Positions 410 through 12,976 of a DNA stretch of 12,976 nt are shown piece by piece. Position numbers and translations under genes: made by a program. Position 1 is the first letter of the stretch. Every line of letters starts with the position of its first letter. The stretch is from a virus (Duplodnaviria; Heunggongvirae; Uroviricota; Caudoviricetes): IMG/VR virus record IMGVR_UViG_2778261571_000007. One strand, given 5' to 3'. Below the pieces are notes generated by a model, which searched no databases, was not told the DNA's origin, and was given only the letters and a program-made list of their open reading frames with translations.

Positions 410-418
410 TAGTCACTC

Positions 419-574: not shown

Positions 575-631
575 AGCCTGCTTCTCCTTGCCTTCCGGCG
601 CGTAAGAGGCTAACCTACATGTGCAAAGCAT
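419..631 (-). CDS. Mok-like in-frame upstream extension of hok (70 aa), putative translational-coupling ORF
   Basis: The ORF starts at the ATG at 631 and reads in frame into hok. Its N-terminal extension MLCTCRLASYAPEGKEKQA resembles the MokC extension pattern. Whether it is translated is not determinable from sequence. Confidence 0.45.
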   Translation of the reverse strand: MLCTCRLASYAPEGKEKQAMKQQKAMLVALIVICLTVIVTALVTRKDLCEVRIRTGQTEVAVFTAYEPEE

Positions 632-1294
632 GAAATTGGCCTCAGATTAATGTTAAGCGTCTTGCCGGACGCGTAATGTTATCTGGGGCTTTTCTCTATC
701 TGCCTTTGGTGTTCATGCCTGAGGCAGATAGCCTCAAGCACCCGCAGCAATTCTACTTAACTCCCGTCACCTCGCCAATATAAAATCAATCAGAAAGGCG
801 ATCCATAAGAACAACAGCAAGACAATAAATTGCCATTACAGCCGCAATAGCTAGCGCACATTTGAGAACCAGCACGACAACCTCCTGTATTGGACGTACA
901 CCAGTTCTGATAAATATGAGGCTGTCTCATCATTGATTCAATATAACTATTGGGTATAGTTTCTGTGATTTTGTTCTGTAGAAATGGAACACAACAACCA
1001 GTCACCACCAGCACTTCTTTAAATACGCCAAGTCCGACGCAAGCTAACCTTCTAGTCCGCTTTGAGCGAGGAGCGGACCAAACCCGGCCAACTGACTCTT
1101 AAAGGGGCCGCAGGAATTTTTCGTCTGAACTTTCGAAGCTCCTCTCCCTGAAGACAGAAAACTTCTGTGTGCTGTGGGAATATTGAATCTTTGCCTTAGA
1201 TATAAATAATTTTATCCCGCCTGAAGTTTACATTATTTTATTTATCTGTTTTTCTAAATCAGACTGCACTCCTTACTTAAATCAGGAGCCAGTC

Positions 1295-2494
1295 ATGCCA
1301 TTTGTTATTTATGTGTTTACTATCAGTGCCTTTGCGCTCGGACTCGCGGAATTTGTCCCCATTGGGCTGACAGACGTTATGGCTCAGGGGTTGTGTGTGG
1401 GTGTGGAGCAGACCGGGGCAGCGGTTACAACCTATGCACTGGGGGCAACGTTCGCGGCACCCGTACTGTCTGCGCTGACAGCAAGCTGGAGCCGGAAAAA
1501 TGTAATGCTTACAACTGCCGTTGTGTTTACTGCCGGTAGTCTGGCGGCCGCGTTTGCAGCCACATTACCTCAGCTCCTGTTAGCGCGGTTCATTGCTGGT
1601 CTGGGACACGGCCTGTTTCTGGCTGCGGCATCCAGTACCGCAGCTCGTCTTGCTGGACCGGGTAAAGCAGGCAGAGCGGTGGCTGTGGTATTTGGTGGCT
1701 TTACTCTGGCGATGGCAATCGGCGTACCGCTGAGTACATGGTTGGGGGGGGTGGTCTCATGGCGTCCAGTTCTCGGCGCTATTGCCGCTTTTGGCGCGTT
1801 CGGATTCCTTGGACTGTTGTTCGGTATGAAAGATCCCGTACGCAGCGTGCCCGGTGAACATAGTGACTCAGCAATGCAGAATATCGGCATGCTGTTTAAC
1901 CGTAAGTTGCTGGCCGGCGCGCTGGTTACGGTGCTGGCGTATGCAGGCTCGTTTACGGATTACACCTTTATCGCACCTATTCTGACGCAGGTGACAGGGG
2001 TTACCGGAGCAACGGTGAGTCTGTTTATGCTGGTTTACGGTATTACAGCTGCGGTAGGTAATATTCTTGGTGGGAAACTTACCGACAGCATGGGGGTTAA
2101 TCGTGCCAATATACTCATCATTAGCGGCATTGTTGTTGTCGTGCTTGGTATGTGGCTGCTGTCATCCTCACCGGTGAGCATGGGCATTCTGGTTGCGCTG
2201 CTGGGTATGGTGACATTTGCCGCAGTGCCGGCACTGCAGGCCCGTCTGATTGGTGTCGCTGAGCAACATGCTCCTCATGCGCATGGTGTTGCTGCCGGCC
2301 TGAATATTGCGGGCTTCAACTCAGGTATAGCGCTGGGATCAGTACTGGGCAGCATTACTATAAGCCACGCCGGTATCGTGTATACCGGTATCAGCGGTGC
2401 GATTGTTTCTCTGCTCGGCCTGCTGTTGCTGCTTGCACAAATCCGTCGCAGCCACAGTCGTAAATTTCAACAGGTTAAAATCGTAGGCCAGTAA
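1295..2494 (+). CDS. MFS transporter, DHA1-type efflux pump (SotB/YdeA/NepI-like), 399 aa
   Basis: The protein is highly hydrophobic with a 12-helix-like pattern. It has an N-terminal EFVPIGL motif and a loop G(x)GKAGRAVAVVFGGFTLAMAIGVPL that align to the SotB-type sugar/purine efflux family. A GGAG Shine-Dalgarno lies 8 nt upstream. Confidence 0.88.
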   Translation: MPFVIYVFTISAFALGLAEFVPIGLTDVMAQGLCVGVEQTGAAVTTYALGATFAAPVLSALTASWSRKNVMLTTAVVFTAGSLAAAFAATLPQLLLARFIAGLGHGLFLAAASSTAARLAGPGKAGRAVAVVFGGFTLAMAIGVPLSTWLGGVVSWRPVLGAIAAFGAFGFLGLLFGMKDPVRSVPGEHSDSAMQNIGMLFNRKLLAGALVTVLAYAGSFTDYTFIAPILTQVTGVTGATVSLFMLVYGITAAVGNILGGKLTDSMGVNRANILIISGIVVVVLGMWLLSSSPVSMGILVALLGMVTFAAVPALQARLIGVAEQHAPHAHGVAAGLNIAGFNSGIALGSVLGSITISHAGIVYTGISGAIVSLLGLLLLLAQIRRSHSRKFQQVKIVGQ

Positions 2495-2505
2495 AGGGAG
2501 GTTAT

Positions 2506-3198
2506 ATGCTTACCCGTGAAAATATGCTTAATGGCACATTTGTCAGGGTGCATGAAGCGCTGCTCCCGGCGAATATGCTCTGGGACGCTGAAAAAATACG
2601 CGCATCAATGAACTCTACTCTGGAGGAGCGCCCGACGGGTGCTCCTGTCTGGATATTTGCCTACGGGTCATTGATGTGGAATCCCGTGCTGGCGATTGAA
2701 GAAATGCAACGGGCCCGTCTGAAAGGATTGCAGCGCAGTTTCTGCATTCGTTTGATATCCGGACGAGCGACTCCTGATGTCCCCGGCAGGATGTTATCGC
2801 TCGACGAAGGTGGAATTACCGAAGGTATTGCGTTCAGACTGCCGGAATCGACTCTTATTAATGAGCTGGAAATTGTCTGGACGCGCGAGATGATAACCGG
2901 TCTTTACCGTCCGGTCTGGGCAGACGTTTCGCTAGGAAACGGTGAGGAAATTCAGGCGCTGGCTTTCGTATCAGACAGACTGCATCCGCATTATGAACAG
3001 GACAATCTTACAGCGACCGTAGCGTTGAGCATCGCATCTGCCCGTGGAGACATTGGCACGAATGCAGATTATGTATGGAAACTGCAGGCCACTCTGGGTG
3101 CGTTGGGAATACGGGATGATTACGTGAGTGAACTGGCCCTTGCTCTGCATGAGGCTCCCTGTAACGATAAACTTCATCAGCGAGGCGCTTCACTATGA
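2506..3198 (+). CDS. ChaC-like gamma-glutamylcyclotransferase (glutathione-specific GGCT family), 230 aa
   Basis: The translation carries the hallmark YGSLMWNP motif and aligns along its length to E. coli ChaC as I recall it (e.g. PVWIFAYGSLMWNP, FC(I/L)RL, GRMLSLDEGG, WTREMITG). A strong AGGGAGG Shine-Dalgarno lies upstream; the gene starts 12 bp after the MFS stop. Confidence 0.85.
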   Translation: MLTRENMLNGTFVRVHEALLPANMLWDAEKIRASMNSTLEERPTGAPVWIFAYGSLMWNPVLAIEEMQRARLKGLQRSFCIRLISGRATPDVPGRMLSLDEGGITEGIAFRLPESTLINELEIVWTREMITGLYRPVWADVSLGNGEEIQALAFVSDRLHPHYEQDNLTATVALSIASARGDIGTNADYVWKLQATLGALGIRDDYVSELALALHEAPCNDKLHQRGASL

Positions 3199-4076
3199 GC
3201 CATCTGAGCCATCTGCGAACGTTTCTTGAGGCCTATCGCTCTGGCTCCTTTTCAAAGGCGGCAGAACTACTGGGCATCACTCAGCCCGCGGCGTCACAGC
3301 ATATCCAGTCTCTTGAGACTCTGGTTGGTAAGCGTCTGTTTATCAGGCAGGCCAGAGGCGTGACGGCAACCGAAGCTGCGGATGAGCTTGCCCGCTCAGT
3401 TTCACCCTTCATTGATGGTCTGGAAGAAAAGCTGTCCTCTTTCCGGTCAGGCTCTGTACGCGGGGGAACAATTAATCTGGCAGGACCGCCAGATTTTATT
3501 CATTCCCGGCTTGGGACAGTAATGGCTCCACTAATGAAGGAGGGGTATCGCCTACGCTTTCATACCGGCAATAAGCAACGTATTTATTCCCTTTTGCATG
3601 ACGGGAGCGCCGATCTCGCTGTTACCGCATCTATGCCTGATGACCGTCTGTACGGCTATGCACATCTACTGACTGAACGCATGCTCCTTGTTCATGCTCC
3701 CGCCATGTCAGAGATCATCGGATCAGAACCTGGTGCTGAAACGCTTGCCTCATTACCGCTGATTGCTTATGACGAAGAGTTGCCACTGATTAGAGCGCTC
3801 TGGGCCTCCATGTTTCAGAGAGCCCCTGAGATGCAGGCTACATTCACCATTCCGGATTTACGTATTATCCGCGACTTGGTCTGTGACGGCCACGGGTGGA
3901 CAGTGCTGCCGGATTATCACTGTGACAATGACCTGAAAAGTGGTCGCCTGATTTCAGTGACACCTGCAGACCTCGCTCCGACTAATCATCTTTATCTGGT
4001 CTGGAACAAAAGGACGGCTAATAACAGCCGAACCGCCTATGTTCGGGATTACATTCTTAAAACGTTTCCGCGTTGA
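3195..4076 (+). CDS. LysR-family transcriptional regulator, 293 aa
   Basis: The N-terminus has the LysR helix-turn-helix signature (LRTFLEAYRSGSFSKAAELLGITQPAASQHIQSLE), and the length and C-terminal domain are typical of the family. The start codon overlaps the ChaC-like stop (ATGA), implying co-transcription. Confidence 0.9.
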   Translation: MSHLSHLRTFLEAYRSGSFSKAAELLGITQPAASQHIQSLETLVGKRLFIRQARGVTATEAADELARSVSPFIDGLEEKLSSFRSGSVRGGTINLAGPPDFIHSRLGTVMAPLMKEGYRLRFHTGNKQRIYSLLHDGSADLAVTASMPDDRLYGYAHLLTERMLLVHAPAMSEIIGSEPGAETLASLPLIAYDEELPLIRALWASMFQRAPEMQATFTIPDLRIIRDLVCDGHGWTVLPDYHCDNDLKSGRLISVTPADLAPTNHLYLVWNKRTANNSRTAYVRDYILKTFPR

Positions 4077-4120
4077 TGTTTGAAACGGATGATTGGCGAT
4101 GCGTATCATAAGTTACGTAT

Positions 4121-4150
4121 GTCCGCTTCTGGCACAAAGCAGACGCCCAC
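4121..4150. repeat. Copy A of a 30-bp imperfect direct repeat (GTCCGCTTCTGGCACAAAGCAGACGCCCAC)
   Basis: 24 of 30 positions match copy B at 7794-7823 in the same orientation. It lies in the convergent intergenic gap between the LysR gene and the DUF2254-like gene. Confidence 0.6.
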
Positions 4151-4206
4151 TCTCACGCGAATGCTTTGCCCTTGACTTGCCAACAACCGTATCGCTTGCT
4201 CCGCAA

Positions 4207-5484
4207 CTATGGTTTTTTATTAGAATCTTCGCCACTAAATAAATTATAATAAATTGATTTTATTAGATATCTGTCAGAATCTATATGGTCAGCACGAGTA
4301 GCATGCTCTAATGTTTCAAATGCTAGGGTTTGTGCGGCTTCAGCAAAAATTCCAGGCCAACCCTTACTCAGCATCGACAGTCCTTTAAGTACCCTTATCT
4401 GAATTTCCCTCATACTGGCACCATCGCGCGCAACAGGTGAGAAAAAGTCTTCAAGTAGATCGTTATTCTGAAGTGGTGCAACATGTACAGAAGGATATTT
4501 CACTTCTATTTCATCAGATTTATTCTGCGCGTAAGCGGAAAGTATACGTACACCTCTGCCAATGACATCAATGGCGGTTCCAGGATCGTTCACTGCGGGG
4601 GAAAGGGCTCGGCAGGCTATTTCGGCCATGACGCTAAGACAAAATCGGGGGTCCTGAGCAAATGAACGTACATCCGAGACAATAATCGTCTCAAGTAAAT
4701 CGGTGCTGATTGATGACTCCTGGCCCTGACTCAGGTACAAAACTGGCGTGGACGGATGTATGAAACTGCCCGGCTGCGCCACGAGGTATACATGACGGGG
4801 ATCATTGGTCAGCAGCTTGCTGAGTTTCACCATATCAACATATTCAACATAGCCAATCTTTTTCGGATAAACTGCAACCGTTCCTTTCGGCTGTTCATTG
4901 TTCTCAAGCCATGGATATCCGCCGAGACAGGGATTTCTTGCTCTCGCAATAAATGTTTCGATGGCCGCCTGTTCTACTTTTGCCGTTGTCTCACCAACCC
5001 TCCCCAGAGAGGTCAAATGCTGTATCCAGCGAAGCAATGTGATGAGGATTAAGGCAATGACAACCAGTGTTACAATGAATAAAATGACTCTCCCCCTTTC
5101 TCCATAAGCTCCCATATTGAGGGCAATAATCCCTACCAGACTGAAGAGAAAAGAACCGATGAAGGTGGCCAGTACATTTTGTGTGGTGACGTCTTCAACA
5201 ACTAAACGAGTAGCTCTGGGAGTCACATTAGTAGTGGCTGAACCGTAGGCTGTGACCATGATGCTCAGCGAAAATGTGGTCACTGCCAGCATACTCGATG
5301 CCAGTATGTTCAGAATGTTATCGACTGCTTCCGCACCAACCTTCACGGAAACCGACTCAGGTATCATTGATTTAAAAAGAATTGATAAAAGGGCCGTTAT
5401 TATTGCGACAATTGCGAATAACGTTGCCCTGAACCATAGTTTTTTAAATGTCTGCTTCAGCATCCATTTCCAGCGTGAAATCAT
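4207..5484 (-). CDS. Integral membrane protein with a large C-terminal soluble domain, DUF2254-like, about 425 aa
   Basis: A long ORF with N-terminal transmembrane segments and a conserved-looking SPAVNDPGTAID motif. The start is probably the ATG at 5482-5484 (GAGGGA Shine-Dalgarno 9 nt upstream); the ORF track's ATG at 5499 has no Shine-Dalgarno. The family assignment is from memory and moderately certain. Confidence 0.8.
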   Translation of the reverse strand: MISRWKWMLKQTFKKLWFRATLFAIVAIITALLSILFKSMIPESVSVKVGAEAVDNILNILASSMLAVTTFSLSIMVTAYGSATTNVTPRATRLVVEDVTTQNVLATFIGSFLFSLVGIIALNMGAYGERGRVILFIVTLVVIALILITLLRWIQHLTSLGRVGETTAKVEQAAIETFIARARNPCLGGYPWLENNEQPKGTVAVYPKKIGYVEYVDMVKLSKLLTNDPRHVYLVAQPGSFIHPSTPVLYLSQGQESSISTDLLETIIVSDVRSFAQDPRFCLSVMAEIACRALSPAVNDPGTAIDVIGRGVRILSAYAQNKSDEIEVKYPSVHVAPLQNNDLLEDFFSPVARDGASMREIQIRVLKGLSMLSKGWPGIFAEAAQTLAFETLEHATRADHIDSDRYLIKSIYYNLFSGEDSNKKP

Positions 5485-5509
5485 TCTGCATTCCCTCATA
5501 TTGCAGCCG

Positions 5510-5541
5510 GGATAAATAAATGCCGCCTCTGTGGCGGCATG
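5510..5541 (-). terminator. Rho-independent terminator downstream of the BetT-like gene
   Basis: On the minus strand: ATGCCGCC-ACAGA-GGCGGCAT (8-bp GC-rich stem) followed directly by TTTATTTAT, starting 7 nt after the BetT-like stop. Confidence 0.7.
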
Positions 5542-5547
5542 TTGCTG

Positions 5548-7551
5548 TTAACGAACCAGATGCAGGAAGTGCAGGTGTTTTTCGTACTGGTCCAGTATGT
5601 CATTAATCAGCTGTTCCTGATTCCAGCCCATTACATCATAATTTTGGCCGCCCTCTTTGAGATAGACTTCAGCGCGATAATATCGATGTTGTTCACTCTG
5701 CTGCTCATCATTATCCAGCGCAGCGAGCGCGAAGGTCGGTGAGTTATACCCGCGAAGCCTCACTTCATATATATAATTCAGCTCGTTGCCCAAATCGACT
5801 TCAAGGCGAATACGATCCTCGGCGGCGTCACTGATGTGGCTTATCGTTCCCTGCTTGTTAAGTTCCTCCTGAACCAGCGTCATGGCGGGTTGGATAATGT
5901 CGTCCATAAAACGTTTCACAAGAGAGCGCTTCGGCAAATACGCGATATTGCGTAACCTTCTCTGCCAGGGAATTGGGTTACGTGCAGCCGTAGGAGCAAT
6001 AGTCGCCATGCTAAGGCTTTCACGTTTGGTCAAATCCCGACGCAGGGCTTTTAACAGTCCGTATATGGATATTAATAAGATAACTGAGAAGGGCAATGCA
6101 CTCGCTATCGTTACGGTTTGCAACGCACTCAGCCCCCCTGCGATCAGCAGGGCAATAGCAACAACGCCCATGAGCGATGCCCAGAAAATTCGCTGCCAGA
6201 CGGGCGTGTTTGCCACCCCACCTGATGCCAGAGTATCCACAACCATTGCCCCCGAATCAGCAGACGTTACAAAGAAGACGATGACCATCGCCATTGCAAT
6301 GAATGACAGCACGGAAGAGAACGGGAAATGCTCCAGGAAATTAAACAGGGCAAGCGCAACATCCTGCTGAACGGTATTGGCGAGGTCAGTGGCGCCCTGG
6401 TTCATGATGAGATAGATGGCGCTGTTTCCAAACACCGTCATCCACATGAGCGTAAAGCCGGCGGGAACAAACAACACGCCAGTCACGAACTCACGAATTG
6501 TCCTGCCGCGGGAAACGCGTGCAATGAACATACCTACAAACGGCGACCATGAAAGCCACCATCCCCAGTATAATAATGTCCAGCCCCCCAGCCAGTTGCT
6601 CGACTTGGGTTCATACGCGTAAAGGTTGAACGTTTTACTCACCAGTTCCGACAGATAACCACCCGTATTTTCCACAAATGACTTCAGCAGAAGCACAGTG
6701 GGACCCAGGCACAAGACCAGCGCCAGGAGCAACACCGCCAGGCCCAGATTAAGCTCAGACAGGATGCGTATTCCCTTGTCCAGGCCGGACACCACCGAAA
6801 TCGTCGCTAACCCCGTGATGACCACGATCAAAATGACCTGTACCGTTTCATTGATGGGCACGCCGAAAAGATGGTTCAAACCGGCATTCACCTGCAATAC
6901 ACCGTAACCCAGCGATGTTGCAACGCCAAAGACAGTGCCTATCACGGCGAAGATATCAACCGCGTGGCCTATAGGCCCGTAAATGCGATCGCCGATAATG
7001 GGATAGAGCGCAGAACGCAGCGTTAAAGGCAGACCGTGACGGTAACTGAAAAAGGCCAGAATCAGCGCCACGATGGCATAAATTGCCCATGCGTGCAGAC
7101 CCCAGTGGAAGAACGTCAGGCGCATGGCTTCCTTCGCTGCCGCAACGGTCTCTGGAGTGCCGACAGGTGGCGAAAGATAATGCATCACAGGTTCGGCAAC
7201 GCCAAAGAACATCAGGCCGATCCCCATCCCTGCCGAAAAAAGCATCGCGAACCAGGAGTGGTAGCTGAAATCAGGCTGCGCATGGTCTGGGCCCAGCTTT
7301 ATATCACCGTAACGTGAGAGTCCAAGGAACGTGACGCTCAGTAAAATCAGGGCCACAGCAAGTATGTAGAACCAGCTGGCATTCGTGAAGATTTGTTGCT
7401 GAAGTAGTTTAAAATTTTTGTCGGCGACATCCGGGAATACGGCGGCAAAGGCGACAAGAAGGAAAATTAGCAAAGCAGATGTAAAGAATACCGCTTTGTT
7501 AATCTGGCTTGTAGACTTCTTTGGGGTTGTATCATTTTCACTCATAATCAT
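5548..7551 (-). CDS. BCCT-family transporter, BetT-like (choline/betaine/carnitine family), 667 aa
   Basis: The translation aligns throughout with E. coli BetT as I recall it (e.g. KLGP(E/D)..P(E/D)FS..SW.AMLF.AG.GI.LMFF.VAEP, WSPFVG(M/L)F(I/L)ARISRGRTIR(E/Q)FV, VTSADSGA) and includes a long C-terminal cytoplasmic tail. No betI/betB/betA genes are adjacent. Confidence 0.9.
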   Translation of the reverse strand: MIMSENDTTPKKSTSQINKAVFFTSALLIFLLVAFAAVFPDVADKNFKLLQQQIFTNASWFYILAVALILLSVTFLGLSRYGDIKLGPDHAQPDFSYHSWFAMLFSAGMGIGLMFFGVAEPVMHYLSPPVGTPETVAAAKEAMRLTFFHWGLHAWAIYAIVALILAFFSYRHGLPLTLRSALYPIIGDRIYGPIGHAVDIFAVIGTVFGVATSLGYGVLQVNAGLNHLFGVPINETVQVILIVVITGLATISVVSGLDKGIRILSELNLGLAVLLLALVLCLGPTVLLLKSFVENTGGYLSELVSKTFNLYAYEPKSSNWLGGWTLLYWGWWLSWSPFVGMFIARVSRGRTIREFVTGVLFVPAGFTLMWMTVFGNSAIYLIMNQGATDLANTVQQDVALALFNFLEHFPFSSVLSFIAMAMVIVFFVTSADSGAMVVDTLASGGVANTPVWQRIFWASLMGVVAIALLIAGGLSALQTVTIASALPFSVILLISIYGLLKALRRDLTKRESLSMATIAPTAARNPIPWQRRLRNIAYLPKRSLVKRFMDDIIQPAMTLVQEELNKQGTISHISDAAEDRIRLEVDLGNELNYIYEVRLRGYNSPTFALAALDNDEQQSEQHRYYRAEVYLKEGGQNYDVMGWNQEQLINDILDQYEKHLHFLHLVR

Positions 7552-7793
7552 TTATTCCATTAATTAAATCCGCACTGGATAGAAGGTACTACCTCTCACA
7601 GAGTAGCAAAGTTCAACTGGCTATGCGGGGTTAATCGGAATGCATGGTGGAATGAGTGCCGATACAAATCATCCTATATTCTAAGGAGTTTTAAGTTACT
7701 CAGCCTGCCAATTACTGGGGCATTTAATTTGTATGATCTGTATCAAAGCTGGGATATAAGTTAAGTGAAGTATATTAGGCACGAATTACCAGC

Positions 7794-7823
7794 GTCTGCT
7801 CTTGGCACAAAGCGGACAACCAC
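7794..7823. repeat. Copy B of the 30-bp imperfect direct repeat (GTCTGCTCTTGGCACAAAGCGGACAACCAC)
   Basis: Matches copy A (4121-4150) at 24 of 30 positions. It lies between the BetT-like start and the end of the phage 140-aa gene. Confidence 0.6.
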
Positions 7824-7885
7824 GCTAGCTCTACCCTGTGCCACAAAATGTCAATTTGCATCTGAACTAATGCACTTTAATCTCG

Positions 7886-8308
7886 TCACTTCAATAAATA
7901 CCGAACATCCCCCTGATAAAACGACAATATGCGCTGCATAACTTCGCTCTTCCGGCACTCGCGACAGATTATGTTTAGGCGACTGTCGTAGCGACGTATT
8001 TCTCCGTCAGGTAATGACCAGATAAGGTCCGGATCAACCACAACCGGTTTCTTCAGCTTTGCCCTCGATAATTTTTTGCGGGCATTTTGCCAGTCTTTAC
8101 GAGCCTGTTCAGACGGGAATAACCCGTAGCCAGAATTGTATACATCGCCACTGGCAACCAGCTCTCTGGCCAGAACGCTCATCAGATATCTTGTTGCCCC
8201 AGTTTTAGCTTCCAGTTGTCGTAACGTCTCGCGCCCACTCTGGCGTACGAGTTCAAGAACCTGCCCTTTAATTTTTTCCCGCTCTTCTTGTGTAAAAACT
8301 TTTGCCAC
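7886..8308 (-). CDS. Phage-associated hypothetical protein (140 aa), last gene of the rightward early operon; function unknown
   Basis: GTG start at 8306-8308 with a strong AGGAGGG Shine-Dalgarno 5 nt upstream. It lies 40 bp downstream of the replisome-organizer gene. The basic protein has a C-terminal CRECRK motif and no recognisable helicase or helicase-loader motifs. Confidence 0.6.
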   Translation of the reverse strand: MAKVFTQEEREKIKGQVLELVRQSGRETLRQLEAKTGATRYLMSVLARELVASGDVYNSGYGLFPSEQARKDWQNARKKLSRAKLKKPVVVDPDLIWSLPDGEIRRYDSRLNIICRECRKSEVMQRILSFYQGDVRYLLK

Positions 8309-8348
8309 AAGCCCTCCTGAAAATTACCTCATGACCAGAAATTAACAC

Positions 8349-9419
8349 TTACCCCCTGAAGCCCGGCGGAATTTCGTTATCCGGTTCAGAAATATGATTC
8401 ACACAACGCTGGTTGTTCGTGCCGCTTACCGGGAGCAACCAGGGGTTCTCAAAATTCCGGTCCGGTCCAAAAAACGTCGTCGCTCGCTGAACAAATTCCG
8501 TTCCCGTTTTCCCGGTAGCCGCCAAGTATCTTGCGTAACGCCTCACGCCATCCAGCATGGCCTCTGGTGGCACCCCCTCGCGTAATCTGGCCTTCCAGGC
8601 ACTGAAAGCGGATTTCTTCGGGTTTGCCCCAGCACGCAACGGGTACTCCCGCCAGACCTGTTCGAACACATCCGGATAATCCACTCGTCCCACAGACTGC
8701 CCGGTGTTTTCCGGGACTACCCGATCGGCTTCCCGCTGAATGGCGGAATCGGCTTCAGGCTGCTGCAGTTGGTGTGATTGCTCCGCCCTTGCGGTCATCA
8801 CCTGCTGCACAGCGCCCGAATCGGCTTTCAGCGCATACGCTGAATCGGCTTCCGGTGTCGTGCCTGCTGGCTGACCAAGATTGACGGTCTGAACATCCCC
8901 TGCCTGGTTCGTGGCGTTTTTTACGCCATGGACCATAGTGTTTTGATCTTCTTGATCTGTATCTTTATCTGTATCTTTATCTGTCGTGACTCGTCGTGAC
9001 ATGTGCGTGACATTTCGTGACGCGCCGTGACAATCGCCATTTTGTTCCCGCTTTCTTTCCCTCTCTCGCTGCGCCCTCTTGCGCTCTGCAGGAGATTTTG
9101 CGGTTTGCGAAATATTGCCGTTGTCCTCTTTAAGCACCTGGCGTTTTTCCCATCCAGTGATTAAATCACCATCAAGTACCCGCCCCTGCATCGTCTGCAA
9201 AATTGAATCAATTACCTCTTCTGTCACGTCGAGCGCACTTGCCAAATCTTCTGTCGTGACATCAATGTGACCTCGCGTGACATTTCGTGACGCGCTCACC
9301 AGGAGGTGGATATACACTGCCATCACTGTTGCAATTGGCTGTCCTGACACCCTGGCAATTGTTCGCCACTTAGGGTCATTTGGCATGTCATGCCATAATC
9401 TGAGCCAGGCGTTAGCCAT
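8349..9419 (-). CDS. Phage replication initiator / replisome organizer (lambda O-like role), about 356 aa
   Basis: The N-terminus MANAWLRLWHDMPNDPKW resembles the phage replisome-organizer N-terminal domain pattern. The C-terminal segment F.QVW..YP...G...K..A..AW...L......E.......Y resembles the lambda O C-terminal region. Iteron-like repeats lie inside the gene, as in lambda ori. Start is probably the ATG at 9417-9419 (GAGGTGA Shine-Dalgarno); an in-frame GTG at 9425 is also possible. Confidence 0.75.
   Translation of the reverse strand: MANAWLRLWHDMPNDPKWRTIARVSGQPIATVMAVYIHLLVSASRNVTRGHIDVTTEDLASALDVTEEVIDSILQTMQGRVLDGDLITGWEKRQVLKEDNGNISQTAKSPAERKRAQRERERKREQNGDCHGASRNVTHMSRRVTTDKDTDKDTDQEDQNTMVHGVKNATNQAGDVQTVNLGQPAGTTPEADSAYALKADSGAVQQVMTARAEQSHQLQQPEADSAIQREADRVVPENTGQSVGRVDYPDVFEQVWREYPLRAGANPKKSAFSAWKARLREGVPPEAMLDGVRRYARYLAATGKTGTEFVQRATTFFGPDRNFENPWLLPVSGTNNQRCVNHISEPDNEIPPGFRG
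8944..9031. repeat. Putative replication origin core: tandem ATCTKT hexamers followed by five helically phased CGTGAC iterons
   Basis: ATCT recurs at 8946-8976 as (ATCTGT ATCTTT)x2 ATCTGT. CGTGAC then occurs at 8985, 8995, 9006, 9016 and 9026, a 10-11 bp periodicity, all in the same orientation inside the replication gene. Confidence 0.6.
9218..9291. repeat. Second iteron cluster inside the replication gene
   Basis: (C/T)GTGAC occurs at 9255, 9266, 9276 and 9286 with 10-11 bp phasing. One inverted GTCACG lies at 9223, and CTTCTGTC is duplicated at 9218 and 9248. The 21-mer GCGTGACATTTCGTGACGCGC at 9276-9296 is an exact copy of 9005-9025. Confidence 0.55.
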
Positions 9420-9490
9420 ACTCACCTCTTTTGATACCGAATCTTTTTACTCACAAATTGCCGGAAGTGATCCGGTATGAATATTGCGAG

Positions 9491-9916
9491 TCAATGCACA
9501 GCCACAATATTTCCTGCAGGGCCACCACGATTCATCTGGTTGAAACCAGCGATCGCCACTGCGACAAAATCATCAGCGTCTCTCACCAGTCGTTCCCGCG
9601 TCTCCACTAGTTCCCGAAAATAGGCTGAGCTATGGCTGCGCATTCGGGCCACCAGCAGAGGTGGCATTGCTTTTTCGATAGCTGGTAACAACGCCTGAAT
9701 TTTTTCAACTGCATCAGGGGTGTCTTTCTCTACCCAGCGGAAAATTTTCTGGGTATTGCGAGCCAGGGCTTCCGGATGGCTGTCGTCATACAGTTCTGGG
9801 AACGTCATACCCAGTTCAAAATAAGCCCTGGTTATTTCAGCTGCCGGAACTTTTTCACCGTCCGGATGCGCCCAGGCATTCATCGCCATGCGGATGTGTT
9901 CATGCTTGATTTTCAT
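9491..9916 (-). CDS. YdaT-like protein (lambdoid CII-position gene of Rac-type prophages), 141 aa
   Basis: The position directly after the Cro-like gene and before the replication gene, and the length (141 aa), match ydaT of Rac-type prophages. AGGAG Shine-Dalgarno 8 nt upstream. The start overlaps the 3' end of the upstream gene by 17 bp. Confidence 0.65.
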   Translation of the reverse strand: MKIKHEHIRMAMNAWAHPDGEKVPAAEITRAYFELGMTFPELYDDSHPEALARNTQKIFRWVEKDTPDAVEKIQALLPAIEKAMPPLLVARMRSHSSAYFRELVETRERLVRDADDFVAVAIAGFNQMNRGGPAGNIVAVH

Positions 9917-10181
9917 GAATCAAGCTCCTAGAAAGTGGTTGTGTTAACATTTTGGTATCTTCCAGCTCGGGCCAAATATTCATCCAATCAAAAGGCCTTA
10001 GTTGCTGACGTGTAACTTCACCATTACTGGCTCGCTCAATAAGGACACATAACGATGCCCCTAACACTTGACCTTTACTCAATGCCTTTCTTAGATAACC
10101 GATGCTGGTACCACACTCGCATGCAAACATACGCTGTTCATCTGACGAAAGAGAATTGAGAAATATTCTTAATTCTTCCAT
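9900..10181 (-). CDS. Cro-like helix-turn-helix regulator (YdaS family), 93 aa
   Basis: Divergent from the repressor gene. It contains a helix-turn-helix-like segment ...CGTSIGYLRKALSKGQ... followed by GEVTRQQLRP, typical of the YdaS/Cro-like family. AAGGAG Shine-Dalgarno 7 nt upstream of the ATG at 10179-10181. Confidence 0.7.
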   Translation of the reverse strand: MEELRIFLNSLSSDEQRMFACECGTSIGYLRKALSKGQVLGASLCVLIERASNGEVTRQQLRPFDWMNIWPELEDTKMLTQPLSRSLIHENQA

Positions 10182-10204
10182 AGCTACTCCTTAGTAAACA
10201 CAGC

Positions 10205-10286
10205 AAAGAATACCCATAGGTAAACAAAAGTCAATACCCACAGGTTGTTTACCTTGCAGTAATCGCATCTATTATTTACCTATGGA
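10205..10286. promoter_or_regulatory. Divergent immunity-region promoter/operator (OR-like): repeated TACCCA(T/C)AGG / AGGTAAACA motifs with candidate promoter elements on both strands
   Basis: TACCCATAGGTAAACA at 10211-10226; TACCCACAGGTTGTTTACC at 10235-10253; TTTACCTATGG at 10275-10285, overlapping the repressor start codon. Minus-strand -35 TTGACT (plus 10229-10234) and -10 TATTCT (plus 10207-10212) with a 16-bp spacer precede the Cro-like gene. Plus-strand -10 TATTAT at 10270-10275 ends 6 nt before the repressor ATG. Confidence 0.6.
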
Positions 10287-10701
10287 CAAATATGAATTTA
10301 GACGACAGCAACTCATCAAAATTCGTGATGAGAAATGCGATGGTAAAGCGGTTAACGTGGCCAGAAAGATCGGGCGCGAGCCTTCTTATGTATCAAGAAT
10401 GTTGTACCCAGAGGGGAAAAAGGGAAAAAAACGGATCGCTGATGATATGGTGGAGATTATCGAAGAGTCCTTTGGGTTACCCCGGGGATGGATGGATGGT
10501 ATCGTTTCATCATCAACGAACACAGCCTCCAGTTATGAAACAAGGGTTCTAACGCCACGACAACGTATTTTTTTAGATCTCTTAGACGAACTGCCAGAAA
10601 GTGAAGCGGATAACTTATTAAAAACTCTTGAAGAGAAAAAACAGTATTACAATATGATCTACGAAGAAATCCGTAAAAAGAAAGCACAAAACGCATCATA
10701 G
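10282..10701 (+). CDS. Prophage repressor, RacR/CI-position gene, 139 aa
   Basis: Divergent from the Cro-like gene and flanked on both sides by the same operator-like motif. It has a putative helix-turn-helix segment (AVNVARKIGREPSYVSRML) and an acidic C-terminal domain. No Shine-Dalgarno is present, which is consistent with a leaderless transcript. Identity with RacR is inferred from synteny, not sequence recall. Confidence 0.7.
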   Translation: MDKYEFRRQQLIKIRDEKCDGKAVNVARKIGREPSYVSRMLYPEGKKGKKRIADDMVEIIEESFGLPRGWMDGIVSSSTNTASSYETRVLTPRQRIFLDLLDELPESEADNLLKTLEEKKQYYNMIYEEIRKKKAQNAS

Positions 10702-10744
10702 CTCACCAAACAACTAGTCACCAGTTAAGACACCGCAAAAAGTT

Positions 10745-10780
10745 ACCCATGGGTATTTACTTTTTAAATACCTATGGGTA
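10745..10780. promoter_or_regulatory. OL-like operator / hairpin downstream of the repressor gene: TACCCATGGGTATTTA-CTTTTT-AAATACCTATGGGTA
   Basis: A near-perfect 16-bp inverted repeat carries the same TACCCATRGGTA motif seen in the divergent promoter region. It is followed by TCCTTCTTTT, so it could also act as the repressor-gene terminator. Confidence 0.55.
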
Positions 10781-10955
10781 TCCTTCTTTTCATACCAACC
10801 CACCCCGCCCCACAGAATGCAGGGCAATACTTCGAGTTACCAGGCAGTGGTCAGGGGTTAAGTAGCCAGCCCGAGGCGTAAGAACATGACGGCGGGATTC
10901 AAATTTTGCAGTGCAGCAGTTAGTTCCGCCACCCGGCGTTAAGGGGAGAGATAAG

Positions 10956-11090
10956 ATGGTGCATTACGAAGTAGTTCAGTATTTGATGGATTGTTGCGGT
11001 ATCACTTACAACCAGGCTGTGCAGGCTTTACGCAGCAACGACTGGGATCTCTGGCAGGCAGAAGTCGCTATACGTAGCAACAAGATGTGA
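10956..11090 (+). CDS. Small phage ORF, 44 aa (YdaG-position)
   Basis: ATG at 10956 has an AAGGGGAGAG Shine-Dalgarno 6 nt upstream. Translation: MVHYEVVQYLMDCCGITYNQAVQALRSNDWDLWQAEVAIRSNKM. Its size and position between the repressor and sieB match ydaG of the Rac prophage. It is below the ORF-track size cut-off. Confidence 0.5.
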   Translation: MVHYEVVQYLMDCCGITYNQAVQALRSNDWDLWQAEVAIRSNKM

Positions 11091-11100
11091 GATTCGCAAA

Positions 11101-11256
11101 ATGCAAAAAATCGACCTCGGCAACAACGAATCCCTGGTGTGCGGCGTGTTCCCCAACCAGGATGGAACGTTCACTGCCATGACGTATACCAAAAGCAAAA
11201 CATTTAAAACCGAAACTGGTGCGCGCCGATGGTTGGAGAAGCACACAGTAAGCTAA
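11101..11256 (+). CDS. Small phage ORF, 51 aa (YdaF-position)
   Basis: ATG at 11101. Translation: MQKIDLGNNESLVCGVFPNQDGTFTAMTYTKSKTFKTETGARRWLEKHTVS. Size and position match ydaF of Rac. The Shine-Dalgarno is weak. Its 3' end overlaps the convergent sieB stop by 4 bp. Confidence 0.45.
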   Translation: MQKIDLGNNESLVCGVFPNQDGTFTAMTYTKSKTFKTETGARRWLEKHTVS

Positions 11257-11741
11257 CGATTAAAACGTCTACTCCTGCTGTTCCAGAATAACTTCATAAA
11301 ATGGGAGTATTTTTCGGTGACGAGATAATAAGAACAGTTTGCGCTATCACTCTGATGTTGAATGATGCCCTTCCGTTCTAATTTTTTCATAACCGGGTTA
11401 CGGCAAGGAGAAGTGATAATAAGATTTCCTGTTTTAAGGAAATCTTTAAATACAGCGATTTCTTTCTCAGATAAACGAAGCAATACTCGTTGCTCTGGTA
11501 GTAATGAATAATGCTTTTGAATATGTGCTCGCAATCTTGAGAAGGAAATGGCGACCACGAAAGAAAAGGCAAAAACGATAATCTGAAAGAGCCAAGGCAT
11601 TTCAGTATAAGCATTGAATGCGACAGTAAACTCTTTCGGTATCAGCCAGAGAGTGAGACCAAAAATGATAATCGTATACATAAGTCTTTCGAGTGGCTCG
11701 TTAGCAAAAAGTTTCAACAATGGAGTAAATACATCCAACAT
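11253..11741 (-). CDS. sieB: Superinfection exclusion protein B (SieB), 162 aa
   Basis: Begins MLDVFTPLLKLFANEPLERLMYTIIIFGLTLWLIP and has two transmembrane segments with a basic C-terminal part, the SieB family pattern. Start is the ATG at 11739-11741 with a GAGAG Shine-Dalgarno. The 266-aa ORF in the track is an unsupported upstream extension of this gene. Confidence 0.75.
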   Translation of the reverse strand: MLDVFTPLLKLFANEPLERLMYTIIIFGLTLWLIPKEFTVAFNAYTEMPWLFQIIVFAFSFVVAISFSRLRAHIQKHYSLLPEQRVLLRLSEKEIAVFKDFLKTGNLIITSPCRNPVMKKLERKGIIQHQSDSANCSYYLVTEKYSHFMKLFWNSRSRRFNR

Positions 11742-11958
11742 ATCAATAACTCTCAACTGTAAGGGTATTGAAATGTTAACACAAGCTCTCGCTGTAGGGG
11801 TATAGCCGAGACCACCGAAGCCCGGAGGTGGTGAAATAAAACCGGGCACAACACGAAGGCGCATTTCCGATATCCATAAAGAGTCGGTCTTGTCTGTTAA
11901 ATTTAAATGGTGGAGTGCGCCTCCGGTTGTAAATAACGACATTGCTGTGTGTAGTCCT

Positions 11959-12009
11959 GGCGGCATCAGTTTTTTTCTTGAAGTTCGGCTGATGTCCGCC
12001 CTTTTTAAA
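11959..12009 (+). terminator. Strong hairpin (11-bp stem with one bulge, 19-nt loop) followed by CTTTTTAAA; candidate intrinsic terminator or regulatory RNA structure between sieB and kilR
   Basis: GGCGGCATCAG at 11959-11969 pairs with CTGATGTCCGCC at 11989-12000, followed by CTTTTT at 12001-12006. Confidence 0.4.
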
Positions 12010-12181
12010 GTGAATTTTGTGATGCGGTGAATGCGGCTAAGCGCACGTGGCACAGTTAAAAGTCATGTTAGTCCTTATTGGTTTGGGTGGGAAAGCCGAC
12101 TGTAATTGTTAACTGGTTGCAGTCACCTGGAGGCACCAGGCACCGCATCAACAAAGTTCATTTGTAAAAATGGAGATAATT

Positions 12182-12403
12182 ATGATTGCACATCACTTCG
12201 GAACTGATGAAATACCACGTCAGTGTGTGACTCCTGGCGATTATGTTCTTCATGAAGGCCGGACATATATTGCCTCGGCAAACAATATTAAAAAGCGAAA
12301 ACTATATATTCGTAACCTGACCACAAAAACATGCATTACTGACCGCATGATTAAAGTCTTCCTCGGTCGTGATGGTTTACCTGTAAAGGCGGAGTCATGG
12401 TGA
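12182..12403 (+). CDS. kilR: KilR-like cell-division (FtsZ) inhibitor, 73 aa
   Basis: ATG at 12182 has a GGAGA Shine-Dalgarno 5 nt upstream; the ORF-track start at 12170 lies inside that Shine-Dalgarno. The length (73 aa) and position (next to sieB, followed by the small zinc-finger ORF and the RacC-like gene) reproduce the Rac order kilR-ydaE-racC. The sequence [14 protein letters not shown]... is consistent with my recollection of KilR. Confidence 0.7.
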
Positions 12404-12573
12404 TGACTAAGAAAATAAAATGTGCTTACCACCTTTGCAAAAAAGACGTTGAAGAAAGCAAAGCTATTGAAAGAATGCTTCACTTCATGCACGGGATTTT
12501 ATCAAAAGACGAACCGAGAAAATATTGCAGTGAAGCTTGTGCCGAAAAAGACCAGATGGCACATGAACTTTAA
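12397..12573 (+). CDS. Small zinc-finger-like protein, 58 aa (YdaE-position)
   Basis: The start ATG at 12397 overlaps the kilR stop (ATGGTGA), implying translational coupling. It has four Cys arranged CxxxxC...CxxxC (KCAYHLC ... YCSEAC). Translation: [58 protein letters not shown]. Confidence 0.6.
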
Positions 12574-12647
12574 TTAATTGACTATTCGAAACTGAATTTA
12601 TGCCAGAAATGGCAGGTATTCGCTCAACCTTAATTAAGGAGAAAAAC

Positions 12648-12944
12648 ATGATTACCAATTATGAAGCCACTGTTGTAACTACCGATGACATTGTTCACGA
12701 GGTGAATCTGGAAGGAAAGCGCATTGGCTACGTAATTAAAACAGAAAATAAAGAAACCCCATTCACTGTGGTTGATATCGATGGTCCATCAGGCAACGTA
12801 AAAACACTTGATGAAGGTGTCAAAAAAATGTGCCTGGTGCATATCGGAAAGAATCTGCCCGCAGAAAAAAAAGCCGAATTTCTGGCAACTCTAATTGCAA
12901 TGAAATTAAAAGGTGAAATCTGGGTGATGCTGCCAACTTACTGA
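12648..12944 (+). CDS. RacC-position phage protein; native coding sequence runs to 12922 and the last 7 codons plus stop are supplied by the IS1 inverted repeat
   Basis: Strong AAGGAG Shine-Dalgarno 6 nt before the ATG at 12648. The reading frame enters the IS1 terminal repeat at 12923, which then encodes VMLPTY and the stop. The native portion is about 91 codons, the size of RacC. Confidence 0.6.
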   Translation: MITNYEATVVTTDDIVHEVNLEGKRIGYVIKTENKETPFTVVDIDGPSGNVKTLDEGVKKMCLVHIGKNLPAEKKAEFLATLIAMKLKGEIWVMLPTY

Positions 12945-12976
12945 TTTAGTGTATGATGGTGTTTTTGAGGTGCTCC
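12923..12976 (+). mobile_element. IS1 insertion sequence, first 54 bp (insA-proximal terminal repeat), element continues rightward past the window edge
   Basis: GGTGATGCTGCCAACTTACTGATTTAGTGTATGATGGTGTTTTTGAGGTGCTCC matches the IS1 terminus as I recall it. The insA GTG start would lie just past the window end. This copy is inverted relative to the copy at 1-83. Confidence 0.9.

Follow-up and report, generated by a model that had tools for sequence, protein, structure and literature searches.

A likely early and immunity region of a Rac-family prophage, cut at two IS1 copies

The locus analysed here raises the question of whether a prophage can be held in its host by its own repressor. The window, the whole stretch of 12,976 bp, is the complete draft contig NLNA01000058.1 of assembly GCA_002229155.1. 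An earlier note had read about 5 kb of it, from position 7886 rightward, as a short cryptic remnant that may be kept by a Rac-type repressor guarding against toxic YdaS/YdaT and KilR, and may pay its way through phage exclusion by SieB. The gene identifications in that note (Cro-like YdaS, CII-like YdaT, a divergent repressor, SieB and KilR) are correct: the named ORFs are present and intact, with Pfam, PHROG and NCBIfam matches. We consider it very likely, however, that the window is the early-gene and immunity region of a larger Rac-family lambdoid E. coli prophage, cut at two IS1 copies, and that it is a mosaic of two modules with a lambda-like switch.

Contig ends and the surrounding prophage

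Both ends of the contig are IS1 left ends. Bases 1-83 match the first 83 bases of the IS1 of strain H7 in reverse orientation (minus strand, 98.8% identity), and the element runs leftward off the contig; bases 12923-12976 are 100% identical to the first 54 bases of IS1 (plus strand), and the element runs off rightward. The left ends thus face outward, the flanking IS1 copies are inverted, and bases 1-83 are an assembly break. Integrase, lysis and structural genes are indeed absent from the window, as the note had observed, but since IS1 stands at both ends, the lack of other phage genes reflects an assembly edge and not a biological boundary.

Positions 84-12922 are 99.97% identical to DNA of strain CP53, where a prophage of about 38 kb surrounds the near-identical stretch and carries intR, xisR, ralR, recT, recE, a Q-like gene, essD/rrrD/Rz, trkG and terminase, portal and capsid genes. 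Tail genes are missing from the CP53 prophage, and the label of defective prophage is still correct for this relative. Near-identical DNA adjoins intR, xisR, recET and a Q-like gene in all three complete genomes examined; lysis and terminase genes are also seen in two of them and capsid/head genes in one. The right-hand context in complete genomes is recE, recT, ralR, xisR, intR and ttcA, and the left-hand context is hokD, nin-like genes, the Q-like gene, essD/rrrD/Rz, trkG, terminase, portal and capsid; in the relatives examined, the prophage is integrated at ttcA, with intR and xisR.

Prophage DNA extends to the left of position 7886 and fills the entire window, so the description as a fragment of about 5 kb is not supported. 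At the far left lie hokD (419-574) and its sok antisense RNA (569-743), a type I toxin-antitoxin pair of the same prophage (419-743, minus strand). The sok match to Rfam RF01794 scores 116 bits against a gathering score of 59, and the annotations of strains CP53 and H7 have hokD at this position too. A cargo island inside the prophage (1295-7545) encodes an MFS transporter, a gamma-glutamylcyclotransferase, a LysR regulator, a DUF2254 protein and a BCCT transporter, the names being those of the RefSeq annotation of the 99.97% identical CP53 DNA. Its GC content is 0.52-0.57, against 0.42-0.49 in the phage genes to its right, among which only the replisome-organizer stretch stands out, with 0.57 at 8501-9000. 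In TA8571 and CFT073, other cargo occupies this position.

The outward-facing left ends of the inverted IS1 copies also fit a reading in which 84-12922 is an IS1-bounded block in the source strain, whether rearranged, compound-transposon-like, or left by IS1-mediated deletion of the prophage arms. The racC/IS1 junction was found in none of 5426 complete E. coli genomes, and a contig from another sequencing run, SRR3989754, ends at the same junction, both of which favor such a block. Short-read assemblies, however, break at every IS1 copy regardless of what lies beyond, and wherever complete genomes show IS1 in this prophage, it is a simple insertion flanked on either side by further prophage DNA. 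We regard an IS1-bounded block as rather unlikely; the element in the source strain could have been truncated by an IS1-mediated deletion or rearrangement.

A K-12 Rac block joined to a different immunity and replication module

Within this larger prophage, the similarity to K-12 Rac (racR-ydaS-ydaT; ydaG-ydaF-sieB-kilS-kilR-ydaE-racC-recET) is confined to one side. Blastn against NC_000913.3 aligned 10791-12922 (plus strand, ydaG to racC) over 2133 bp at 99.58% identity, and found no K-12 match to the left of 10791 apart from a stretch of 30 bp at the ydaS/ydaT junction. The left breakpoint of the block lies just right of the putative operator region OL. The module on its left, about 7886-10790, is by these alignments a different immunity and replication allele from that of K-12. 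Gene order and strands are those of K-12 Rac, and the window's relatives share its integration at ttcA. In contrast, the repressor, Cro-like gene, operators and replication genes are of another allele, ydaV (DnaC-like) and ydaW are absent, beyond the replication genes come a 6-kb transporter cargo island and hokD/sok, and the lysis, terminase and head genes lost in K-12 are kept in the window's relatives.

The K-12 Rac block begins with ydaG (10956-11090) and ydaF (11101-11256), both on the plus strand and 100% identical to the K-12 proteins; they are the first genes of the operon read from the predicted promoter PL. Antisense to this operon lies sieB (11253-11741, minus strand; Pfam PF14163, 106 bits, E 1.6e-30), whose superinfection exclusion protein is identical to K-12 SieB at 161 of 162 residues and which occurs in 1376 of the 5426 complete genomes. 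The KilS small RNA, a kilR 5'UTR element, was placed at 11909-12006 (plus strand) by transfer of the K-12 b4833 coordinates through the 99.6% alignment; its 3' hairpin (11959-12000) is followed by a U-run and folds at -33.7 kcal/mol (z = -2.7). In K-12, KilS has been verified by northern blot (PMC8175672). The kilR gene (12182-12403, plus strand; NCBIfam NF008465, 161.5 bits against a cut-off of 92) encodes an inhibitor of FtsZ and cell division that shares 72 of 73 residues with K-12 KilR, the single difference being F51C. It is followed by ydaE (12403-12573, plus strand), 100% identical to K-12 YdaE, and racC (12648-12946, plus strand), of which residues 1-91 are identical to K-12 RacC; the IS1 insertion alters its stop codon from TGA to TGG and adds seven residues.

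On the other side, the minus-strand genes resemble those of other prophages. YdaS (9900-10181), a Cro-like regulator, belongs to PHROG 35 (E 1e-22); it matches K-12 YdaS weakly (54% over 28 aa). YdaT (9491-9916), a CII-like transcription factor (Pfam PF06254; PHROG 163, 'CII-like'), is identical at 140 of 141 residues to PDB 3c4r and about 85% identical to the CP-933P YdaT of PDB 8bt1, against 33% for K-12 YdaT. An inverted repeat, TTGATTN6AATCAA, has its one exact match in the window at the ydaS/ydaT junction (OM, 9906-9923), and a site of the same motif and position has been footprinted in CP-933P (PMC9986795). Further along lie the gene of a replisome organizer, an analogue of lambda O (8349-9419; PHROG 3729, 'replication initiation protein', E 2e-257), in which only the C-terminal 19 aa resemble K-12 YdaU, and a DUF977/Ren-like gene (7886-8308; Pfam PF06163, 99 bits; PHROG 142, 'Ren-like exclusion protein'), with which the rightward early operon ends in the window.

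The 1.3-kb module from ydaT to OL occurs in 813 genomes, and 822 have the repressor gene. The same RefSeq repressor (WP_000362155.1) and YdaS (WP_000391949.1) occur in an unrelated prophage at potC in CFT073 (O6:H1), the source of PDB 3c4r, together with a near-identical YdaT, O-like and DUF977 genes of the same type, and hokD downstream. That prophage, however, has a dicB-type left arm (ydfA, ydfB, ydfC, dicB, ydfD) and its own integrase and attachment site, and lacks the BCCT cargo island. CP-933P/Sp12 of E. coli O157:H7 (paaR2-paaA2-parE2/ydaS-ydaT) shares the YdaT type, the repeat at the ydaS/ydaT junction, a short repressor lacking a peptidase domain, and a divergent layout with a division-inhibitor gene downstream of the repressor. 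It differs in that its repressor and YdaS are only 26% and 27% identical to those of the window, its paaA2-parE2 toxin-antitoxin pair after the repressor has no counterpart in the window, and the left arm of the window has kilR and sieB in place of dicB.

The Pfam family names YdaS_toxin and YdaT_toxin could suggest that ydaS and ydaT form a type II toxin-antitoxin pair; both families are hit here (YdaS with 25.8 bits, under the 30-bit cut-off), and K-12 YdaT is toxic when ectopically expressed. We consider this reading almost certainly wrong. In CP-933P, YdaS and YdaT take the roles of Cro and CII, and no toxicity was seen (PMC8630535); YdaT binds DNA as a POU/HTH tetramer at a defined operator (PMC9986795), which occurs in the window; and earlier tests for toxin-antitoxin activity failed (PMC5917428).

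The repressor and its predicted operators

Between the two modules' operons lies the divergent gene of a 139-aa CI-type repressor (10282-10701, plus strand; PHROG 5736). BLASTP gave no match between this repressor and RacR, and no Pfam domain, S24 peptidase included, was found in it; a Rac-type repressor, as the note had it, is not borne out. Residues 1-75 are about 85% identical to 221-aa LexA-family S24 repressors (75% over the full 89-residue alignment), and the homology ends there. Residues 86-136 match the C-terminus of DicA weakly (23.9 bits against a family cut-off of 101), and PaaR2 is 26% identical over 97 aa, with the distant similarity including the C-terminus. DicA, from the cryptic prophage Qin, is likewise a short prophage repressor (135 aa) lacking a peptidase domain, in which the C-terminal 50 aa are weakly similar but the N-terminal DNA-binding domain is unrelated; in K-12 it is counted with the essential repressors of defective prophages (PMC5917428). 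The homologues of the window's repressor fall into two classes: short forms of 135-140 aa, which have no Pfam domain, and S24 forms of 220-240 aa, whose alignment covers only the N-terminal 53-73% of the repressor. The repressor resembles a chimeric protein in which a CI DNA-binding domain is joined to a DicA/PaaR2-like C-terminus. Since it lacks the S24 autopeptidase domain, it is probably left uncleaved in the SOS response.

Candidate operators flank the repressor gene. With one mismatch allowed, TACC-N4-GGTA has eight matches in 13 kb, against a chance expectation of 2.7 and with eight reached in one of 200 shuffles; five of the eight, and all three exact matches, lie in the two intergenic regions flanking the gene. 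The OR region (10207-10275) has three (10211-10222, 10235-10246 and 10250-10261), which overlap back-to-back promoter-like sites found by a promoter hexamer scan: a PR-like site within OR on the minus strand (10234 to 10207) and a PRM-like site on the plus strand (10248-10275) that ends 6 nt before the repressor ATG. The OL region (10744-10780) has two exact copies (10744-10755 and 10769-10780). A PL promoter presumably lies between and over them, pointing rightward; the candidate has 8 of 12 hexamer matches by manual count and falls below the threshold of the scan, which lists none there.

The active temperate phage mEp043, whose cI N-terminal domain is 65% identical to the repressor of the window, has the same motif with the same OR spacing (23-24 and 15-16 nt), and two such sites over its annotated putative PL. 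Its cI differs in having 228 aa and resembling the 933W CI repressor, related repressors of 220-240 aa carrying an S24 peptidase domain; its Cro and CII belong to different families, and an N antiterminator follows PL. No N-like antiterminator is visible in the window, a point against transcripts from PL reaching as far as kilR and recET.

Operators on either side of the repressor gene fit a lambda-like switch over both early operons. The repressor would bind the TACC-N4-GGTA sites, three at OR in the gap between its gene and ydaS and two at OL just downstream of its gene. Bound there, it would shut off PR, and with it ydaS, ydaT, the replisome organizer and DUF977, as well as PL, from which transcription would pass through ydaG and ydaF, antisense across sieB, and on through KilS, kilR, ydaE and racC towards recET. 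YdaS would serve as the Cro analogue of the switch, and YdaT as the CII analogue, binding TTGATTN6AATCAA at the ydaS/ydaT junction. The claim that the genes stand under one repressor is accordingly plausible for the two early operons. It does not extend plausibly to sieB, a gene of the opposite strand that is probably read from its own promoter in the lysogen. Phage exclusion by SieB requires that sieB be expressed while the repressor is active, and expression in the lysogen would be expected; our literature search found no published exclusion phenotype for Rac SieB. For kilR, the KilS/terminator element adds a further layer of control, as does Rho/NusG termination in K-12 (PMC5793797, PMC12482147).

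Repressor addiction and retention of the prophage

The case for addiction comes largely from K-12, where racR cannot be deleted unless ydaS/ydaT is removed (PMC5700373; PMC11014345). Natural sequences offer some agreement. All the named genes are intact, gross disruption of the repressor gene was seen in 0 of 822 carrier genomes, the adjacent repressor is present in 813 of 813 genomes with this ydaS-ydaT allele, and natural IS hits occur in kilR (strain H7) and in the PR-ydaS gap and sieB (TA8571) but not in the repressor. However, gross disruption is equally rare in kilR (3/1882) and sieB (5/1376), so the repressor is not preferentially retained, and its co-occurrence with ydaST is expected anyway from the physical linkage of a 1.3-kb cassette.

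The K-12 data, moreover, concern RacR, YdaS and YdaT of a different immunity allele: the repressor here is unrelated to RacR, YdaT is only 33% identical to that of K-12, and its closest studied relative, CP-933P YdaT, is reported to be non-toxic (PMC8630535; PMC11014345). K-12 also speaks against the note's account of kilR: racR resisted deletion even where kilR had been removed (PMC5700373), and NusG/Rho has a part in silencing kilR. The addictive paaA2-parE2 pair of CP-933P is absent from the window, and the apparent remnant is a contig-edge artefact, with a larger prophage in relatives.

A repressor that silences toxic genes of its own element gives that element no stability, because loss of the whole element removes both. 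In K-12, Rac can be deleted as a whole (PMC5700373), and a shortage of RacR selects for cells that have excised and lost the prophage (PMC11014345), which speaks against repressor addiction as the force that maintains the prophage. We consider the addicted remnant an improbable reading, still less likely than the IS1-bounded block. Collectively, the larger prophage described above has an early region of an ordinary kind that is largely known; repressor addiction can retain a repressor gene, not a prophage, and the need for this repressor is probably trivial, no different from the dependence of any lysogen on its own repressor.

Gene content and extent of the prophage

Based on the six-frame ORF list and the family searches, all 11 genes assigned from 7886 rightward have open reading frames. 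Four lie on the minus strand at the left: a gene for a DUF977/Ren-like protein (7886-8308; Pfam PF06163, PHROG 142), a lambda-O-like replisome organizer gene (8349-9419; PHROG 3729, E 2e-257), ydaT (9491-9916; Pfam PF06254, PHROG 163 'CII-like') and a Cro-like ydaS (9900-10181; PHROG 35). A divergent 139-aa regulator, the repressor (10282-10701; PHROG 5736), is followed on the plus strand by ydaG (10956-11090), ydaF (11101-11256), kilR (12182-12403; NCBIfam NF008465, 161.5 bits against a cut-off of 92; PHROG 294), ydaE (12403-12573) and racC (12648-12946); sieB (11253-11741; Pfam PF14163, 106 bits against a cut-off of 26; PHROG 6399) is on the minus strand. The Cro-like/YdaT-like pair, the KilR-like protein and SieB named in an earlier note on this DNA are thus present with open frames; the extent, the boundaries and the repressor identity given there were wrong.

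The DUF977 gene directly follows the replisome organizer gene, and a DnaC/P-like helicase loader gene is absent. K-12 Rac has such a loader, ydaV, and so does a CP-933P-type locus (L008 1390-2136). The loader-less arrangement is probably a functional variant and not decay, since the prophage at potC in strain CFT073 has the same arrangement.

When the RacC product was looked up by exact protein match, the window proved to be the complete draft contig NLNA01000058.1 (assembly GCA_002229155.1, 12,976 bp); the only other record returned was one 4.7-kb read-assembly contig. Positions 12923-12976 correspond to the first 54 bases of IS1, and positions 1-83 to its first 83 bases, oppositely oriented. 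The interval 84-12922 is flanked by these two inverted IS1 copies, the left ends of which both face outward. The right-hand copy lies in the racC stop codon, converting TGA to TGG and adding 7 residues to RacC, and this racC/IS1 junction was found in 0 of 5426 complete E. coli genomes. Given that both contig ends are IS1 sequence, the assembly broke at the two IS1 copies; therefore, the absence of integrase, lysis or structural genes 'in view' permits no inference on the presence of these genes in the strain.

The 5.5-kb query 7500-12976 was covered to at least 80% in 262 of the 5426 complete E. coli genomes. Strain CP53 matched 84-12922 at 99.97% identity. Right of racC, it carries recE, recT, ralR, rcbA, xisR and intR, followed by ttcA; left of hokD are genes for DUF1367 and DUF1364 proteins, a Q-like DUF1133 gene, tolA-like genes, essD, rrrD, an Rz-type lysis gene and trkG. 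Beyond trkG are genes for the small and large terminase, portal, minor head, scaffold and P22-type major capsid proteins and head-completion genes, with a truncated pin recombinase gene after them. At about 38 kb, this Rac-family prophage of CP53, inserted at ttcA, is much larger than a 5-kb remnant, although it has no tail genes and remains defective. Strain H7 has a CP53-like layout with an IS1 in kilR (L001 19683-20681), and strain TA8571 carries an IS1 between PR, the ydaS-side early promoter, and ydaS, and an IS3 in sieB (L010 9410-10428 and 11540-13289). Integration at ttcA with intR and xisR is seen in these three relatives, and the window itself ends at IS1. The proposal of a remnant of about 5 kb, with no integrase, lysis or structural genes in view, is not supported, given the contig edges at IS1, the prophage DNA left of 7886 and the CP53 relative. 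The remnant status is an artefact, in which an IS-element contig edge was taken for a biological boundary, and similar edges call for caution.

The left part of the window contains hokD (419-574, minus strand) with the sok antisense RNA alongside (together 419-743), and between hokD/sok and DUF977 lies a 6-kb cargo island (1295-7545; GC 0.52-0.57) encoding an MFS transporter, a gamma-glutamylcyclotransferase, a LysR regulator, a DUF2254 protein and a BCCT transporter. The cargo in the slot flanked by DUF977 and the hokD/nin-like genes is variable: DUF262, TPR and DUF1971 proteins are encoded there in TA8571 (L010 2975-7151), and small hypothetical genes occupy the slot in CFT073 (L009 8439-9553). 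The BCCT and DUF2254 pair also occurs at other chromosomal sites, at about 94% identity, in well over a thousand genomes.

Mosaic structure and the immunity switch

The window was compared with the Rac prophage of K-12 MG1655 by blastn. A block at 10791-12922, spanning the spacer before ydaG through racC, matched over 2133 bp with 99.58% identity, and the only other K-12 match was 30 bp at the ydaS/ydaT junction. The operon on the side of PL, the ydaG-side early promoter, matches b1351-b1355, kilS and sieB of K-12 in gene order and strand, with proteins 98.6-100% identical: the ydaG, ydaF and ydaE products and RacC (residues 1-91) are identical, SieB differs by one residue (99.4% identical) and KilR by one, F51C (72/73 identical). 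The immunity side is different, although the divergent layout of YdaS/YdaT versus the repressor in the K-12 RacR-YdaS-YdaT module is present here. RacR and the window repressor gave no BLASTP alignment at E values up to 10. YdaT is 33% identical to K-12 YdaT (Pfam PF06254, 39.6 bits against a cut-off of 21), YdaS matches K-12 YdaS over 28 aa only (Pfam PF15943, 25.8 bits, under the 30-bit cut-off), and the replisome organizer has its final 19 residues alone in common with K-12 YdaU. Because the repressor, YdaS, YdaT and the replisome organizer all diverge, the prophage is heteroimmune to K-12 Rac. The designation 'Rac-type repressor' does not fit a protein that cannot be aligned with RacR, encoded in a region that, left of 10791, resembles K-12 DNA over 30 bp alone.

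The CFT073 prophage at potC encodes the same RefSeq repressor (WP_000362155.1) and YdaS (WP_000391949.1), and its YdaT, O-like and DUF977 genes are near-identical; its left arm differs, being ydfA-ydfB-ydfC-dicB. This is textbook lambdoid mosaicism, with one immunity/replication cassette and varied left arms joined just past the OL operators. Overall, the early region is of an ordinary mosaic lambdoid kind, assembled from parts studied before.

Repeat searches found a palindromic motif, TACC-N4-GGTA, flanking the repressor gene. Three sites between ydaS and the repressor gene (10211-10222, 10235-10246 and 10250-10261) form the putative OR, and two exact sites between the repressor stop codon and ydaG (10744-10755 and 10769-10780) form the putative OL. 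With one mismatch allowed, the motif has 8 matches in the window against 2.7 expected, and 5 of the 8, including all three exact ones, fall within these two short intergenic regions. The OL pair had been labelled 'terminator-like' by the promoter scan; it was reread as operators because OR and phage mEp043 carry these repeats too. In this active temperate phage, the cI N-terminal domain is 65% identical to that of the window repressor, OR has the same motif at the same 23-24 and 15-16 nt spacing, and two motif copies lie over the annotated putative PL, parallel to OL here. The predicted operator assignment is thereby cross-validated by mEp043. The K-12 homology breakpoint at 10791 is immediately right of OL; therefore, the exchanged cassette brings along operators of its own at either end, which is what an immunity swap would be expected to produce.

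Promoter-like hexamers on both strands overlap the OR sites, one set PR-like toward ydaS and the other PRM-like toward the repressor; the scan gave neither a PL nor a sieB promoter at its threshold. Within 10248-10284, the -10 hexamer of the PRM-like site stops 6 nt short of the repressor ATG, so the repressor mRNA may be leaderless or nearly so. The lambda cI mRNA from PRM is likewise leaderless or nearly so. At the ydaS/ydaT junction, the YdaT operator TTGATTN6AATCAA is present as an exact copy, TTGATTTTCATGAATCAA (9906-9923). The corresponding operator (OM) of CP-933P has been footprinted at the ydaS/ydaT junction, beside a PRE-like promoter (PMC9986795; PMC8630535).

The region thus has divergent repressor and cro-like genes, OR over back-to-back promoters, OL, and a CII-type activator with its junction site, all features of a lambdoid switch; a C-terminal S24 (LexA-like) autopeptidase domain was not found in the repressor. 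In the proposed switch, the repressor would act at OR and OL, YdaS would serve as the Cro-like protein, and YdaT would act in a CII-like manner at the ydaS/ydaT junction. A single repressor plausibly controls both early operons.

Toxicity, exclusion and repressor addiction

The earlier note had placed KilR and SieB, too, under the one repressor. That idea is plausible for the early operons, does not hold for sieB and is not simply true of kilR. The KilS small RNA, in the 5' UTR of kilR, was located at 11909-12006 (plus strand) by alignment transfer of the K-12 annotation; it folds (-33.7 kcal/mol, z = -2.7) with a GC-rich, terminator-like hairpin and a U-run at its 3' end, which lies about 175 nt before kilR. 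In K-12, KilS has been confirmed by northern blot and apparently has its own promoter (PMC8175672), and NusG and Rho hold kilR expression down until it is released by OxyS (PMC5793797, PMC12482147). Given these layers, KilR is not simply under one repressor. Furthermore, KilR is not the cause of repressor essentiality in K-12, since racR is undeletable even in a kilR deletion strain (PMC5700373). The KilR F51C substitution is at 12332, and by its annotation, WP_000560223.1, the variant is also present in CP53 and TA8571.

sieB is opposite in strand to the PL-side operon. With the same layout in P22 and lambda, sieB is reportedly expressed in the lysogen from its own promoter, as described by Ranade and Poteete in 1993. 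SieB cannot be both repressed and exclusion-providing. The literature search retrieved no reported exclusion phenotype for Rac SieB, and a PADLOC scan of ten proteins gave no SieB model match and no defence-system match except a weak, meaningless one to JetC.

YdaT was 140/141 residues identical to PDB 3c4r (E. coli O6:H1) and about 85% identical to PDB 8bt1 (CP-933P YdaT), and the window shares both YdaT type and operator with the CP-933P immunity region. CP-933P YdaT is reported to be non-toxic, and the addictive behaviour of CP-933P has been ascribed to paaA2-parE2 (both PMC8630535; PMC11014345). Both genes lie 3' of paaR2 in the CP-933P-type locus, whereas the window is without the pair: no ORF of at least 40 aa begins and ends inside 10702-10910. 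The sole overlapping minus-strand ORF (10457-10699) is within the repressor gene. A type II toxin-antitoxin pair formed by ydaS and ydaT was ruled out on the literature (PMC5917428, PMC9986795, PMC8630535).

The statement that the repressor of K-12 Rac is essential is correct, RacR being required because ydaS/ydaT expression is lethal (PMC5700373, PMC5700377). Its extension to the window is limited by the different immunity allele, the CP-933P-type YdaT reported as non-toxic and the missing paaA2-parE2. K-12 results on RacR were applied to a heteroimmune prophage with an unrelated repressor, and to a YdaT of the subtype reported as non-toxic; both steps call for caution. Maintenance of the element by repressor addiction fares no better, since the entire Rac prophage can be deleted from K-12 (PMC5700373) and RacR deficit selects for its excision and loss (PMC11014345). 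Jobling has argued that a repressor is needed by every lysogen in which early or lytic genes still work (PMC5917428), and the relatives H7 and CP53 keep a Q-like gene and the lysis cassette. A repressor silencing the genes of its own element protects the repressor gene only, and 'addiction' does not explain element maintenance. The interpretation as a whole is thus supported in part: one repressor over both early operons is plausible, the remnant is an artefact, the evidence for essentiality comes from another allele, and addiction fails as the reason why the element is kept.

Conservation was then compared among the complete genomes. The repressor gene was present in 822 genomes, and the ydaS-ydaT allele pair and the 1.3-kb ydaT-to-OL module in 813 each, placing the immunity cassette in 15% of complete E. 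coli genomes. ydaT by itself, common to many other Cro/CI types, was present in about 3040, Rac-type kilR in 1882 and sieB in 1376. Gross disruption, a measure blind to frameshifts and point mutations, affected 0/822 repressor genes, 3/1882 kilR genes and 5/1376 sieB genes, with no meaningful difference. Natural IS insertions lie in kilR (H7) and in the PR-ydaS gap and sieB (TA8571); in the repressor gene, none was seen among the 822 genomes. Strict co-occurrence of the repressor with ydaS/ydaT does not discriminate, since tight linkage predicts the same. Neither disruption nor co-occurrence separates the hypotheses.

The Rfam scan of the window returned sok as the sole match (RF01794, 116 bits); KilS belongs to no Rfam family. 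hokD/sok, a type I toxin-antitoxin pair of the same prophage outside 7886-12944, is the only element here of a family known for post-segregational killing, and could provide true killing of this kind.

The 139-residue repressor

Residues 1-75 of the repressor are about 85% identical (75% over an 89-residue alignment) to 221-aa LexA-family S24 repressors of Salmonella, and the homology ends near residue 75-89. No match was found in the Pfam search, and the PDB sequence search gave chance-level matches only. Database relatives are of two kinds: S24-bearing proteins, 220-240 aa long, and short proteins of 135-140 aa without a Pfam domain. The short form is a real family and not a truncation, because E. 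coli, Salmonella, Serratia and Yersinia all have it. A weak resemblance to the DicA C-terminus extends over residues 86-136, and a weak C-terminal resemblance to PaaR2 was also found (26% over 97 aa). PaaR2, like the window repressor, is a CI analogue without an autopeptidase domain. Since that domain is absent, we infer that the repressor would escape direct inactivation by RecA.

This short CI-type repressor, annotated as 'hypothetical protein', is the only modestly new, uncharacterised item of the locus, and its operators are clearly predictable. We tentatively suggest, as a rather unlikely reading, that it is a natural chimera of a DNA-binding domain from an SOS-cleavable S24 CI family and a non-cleavable DicA/PaaR2-type C-terminus, that is, an SOS-blind, host-domesticated 'immunity-only' repressor. 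If this were true, the SOS response would not induce the prophage, inducible phages of the same operator specificity (TACC-N4-GGTA, as in mEp043) would find the host immune, and the cassette would spread among unrelated lambdoid backbones, such as Rac at ttcA and the CFT073 prophage at potC.
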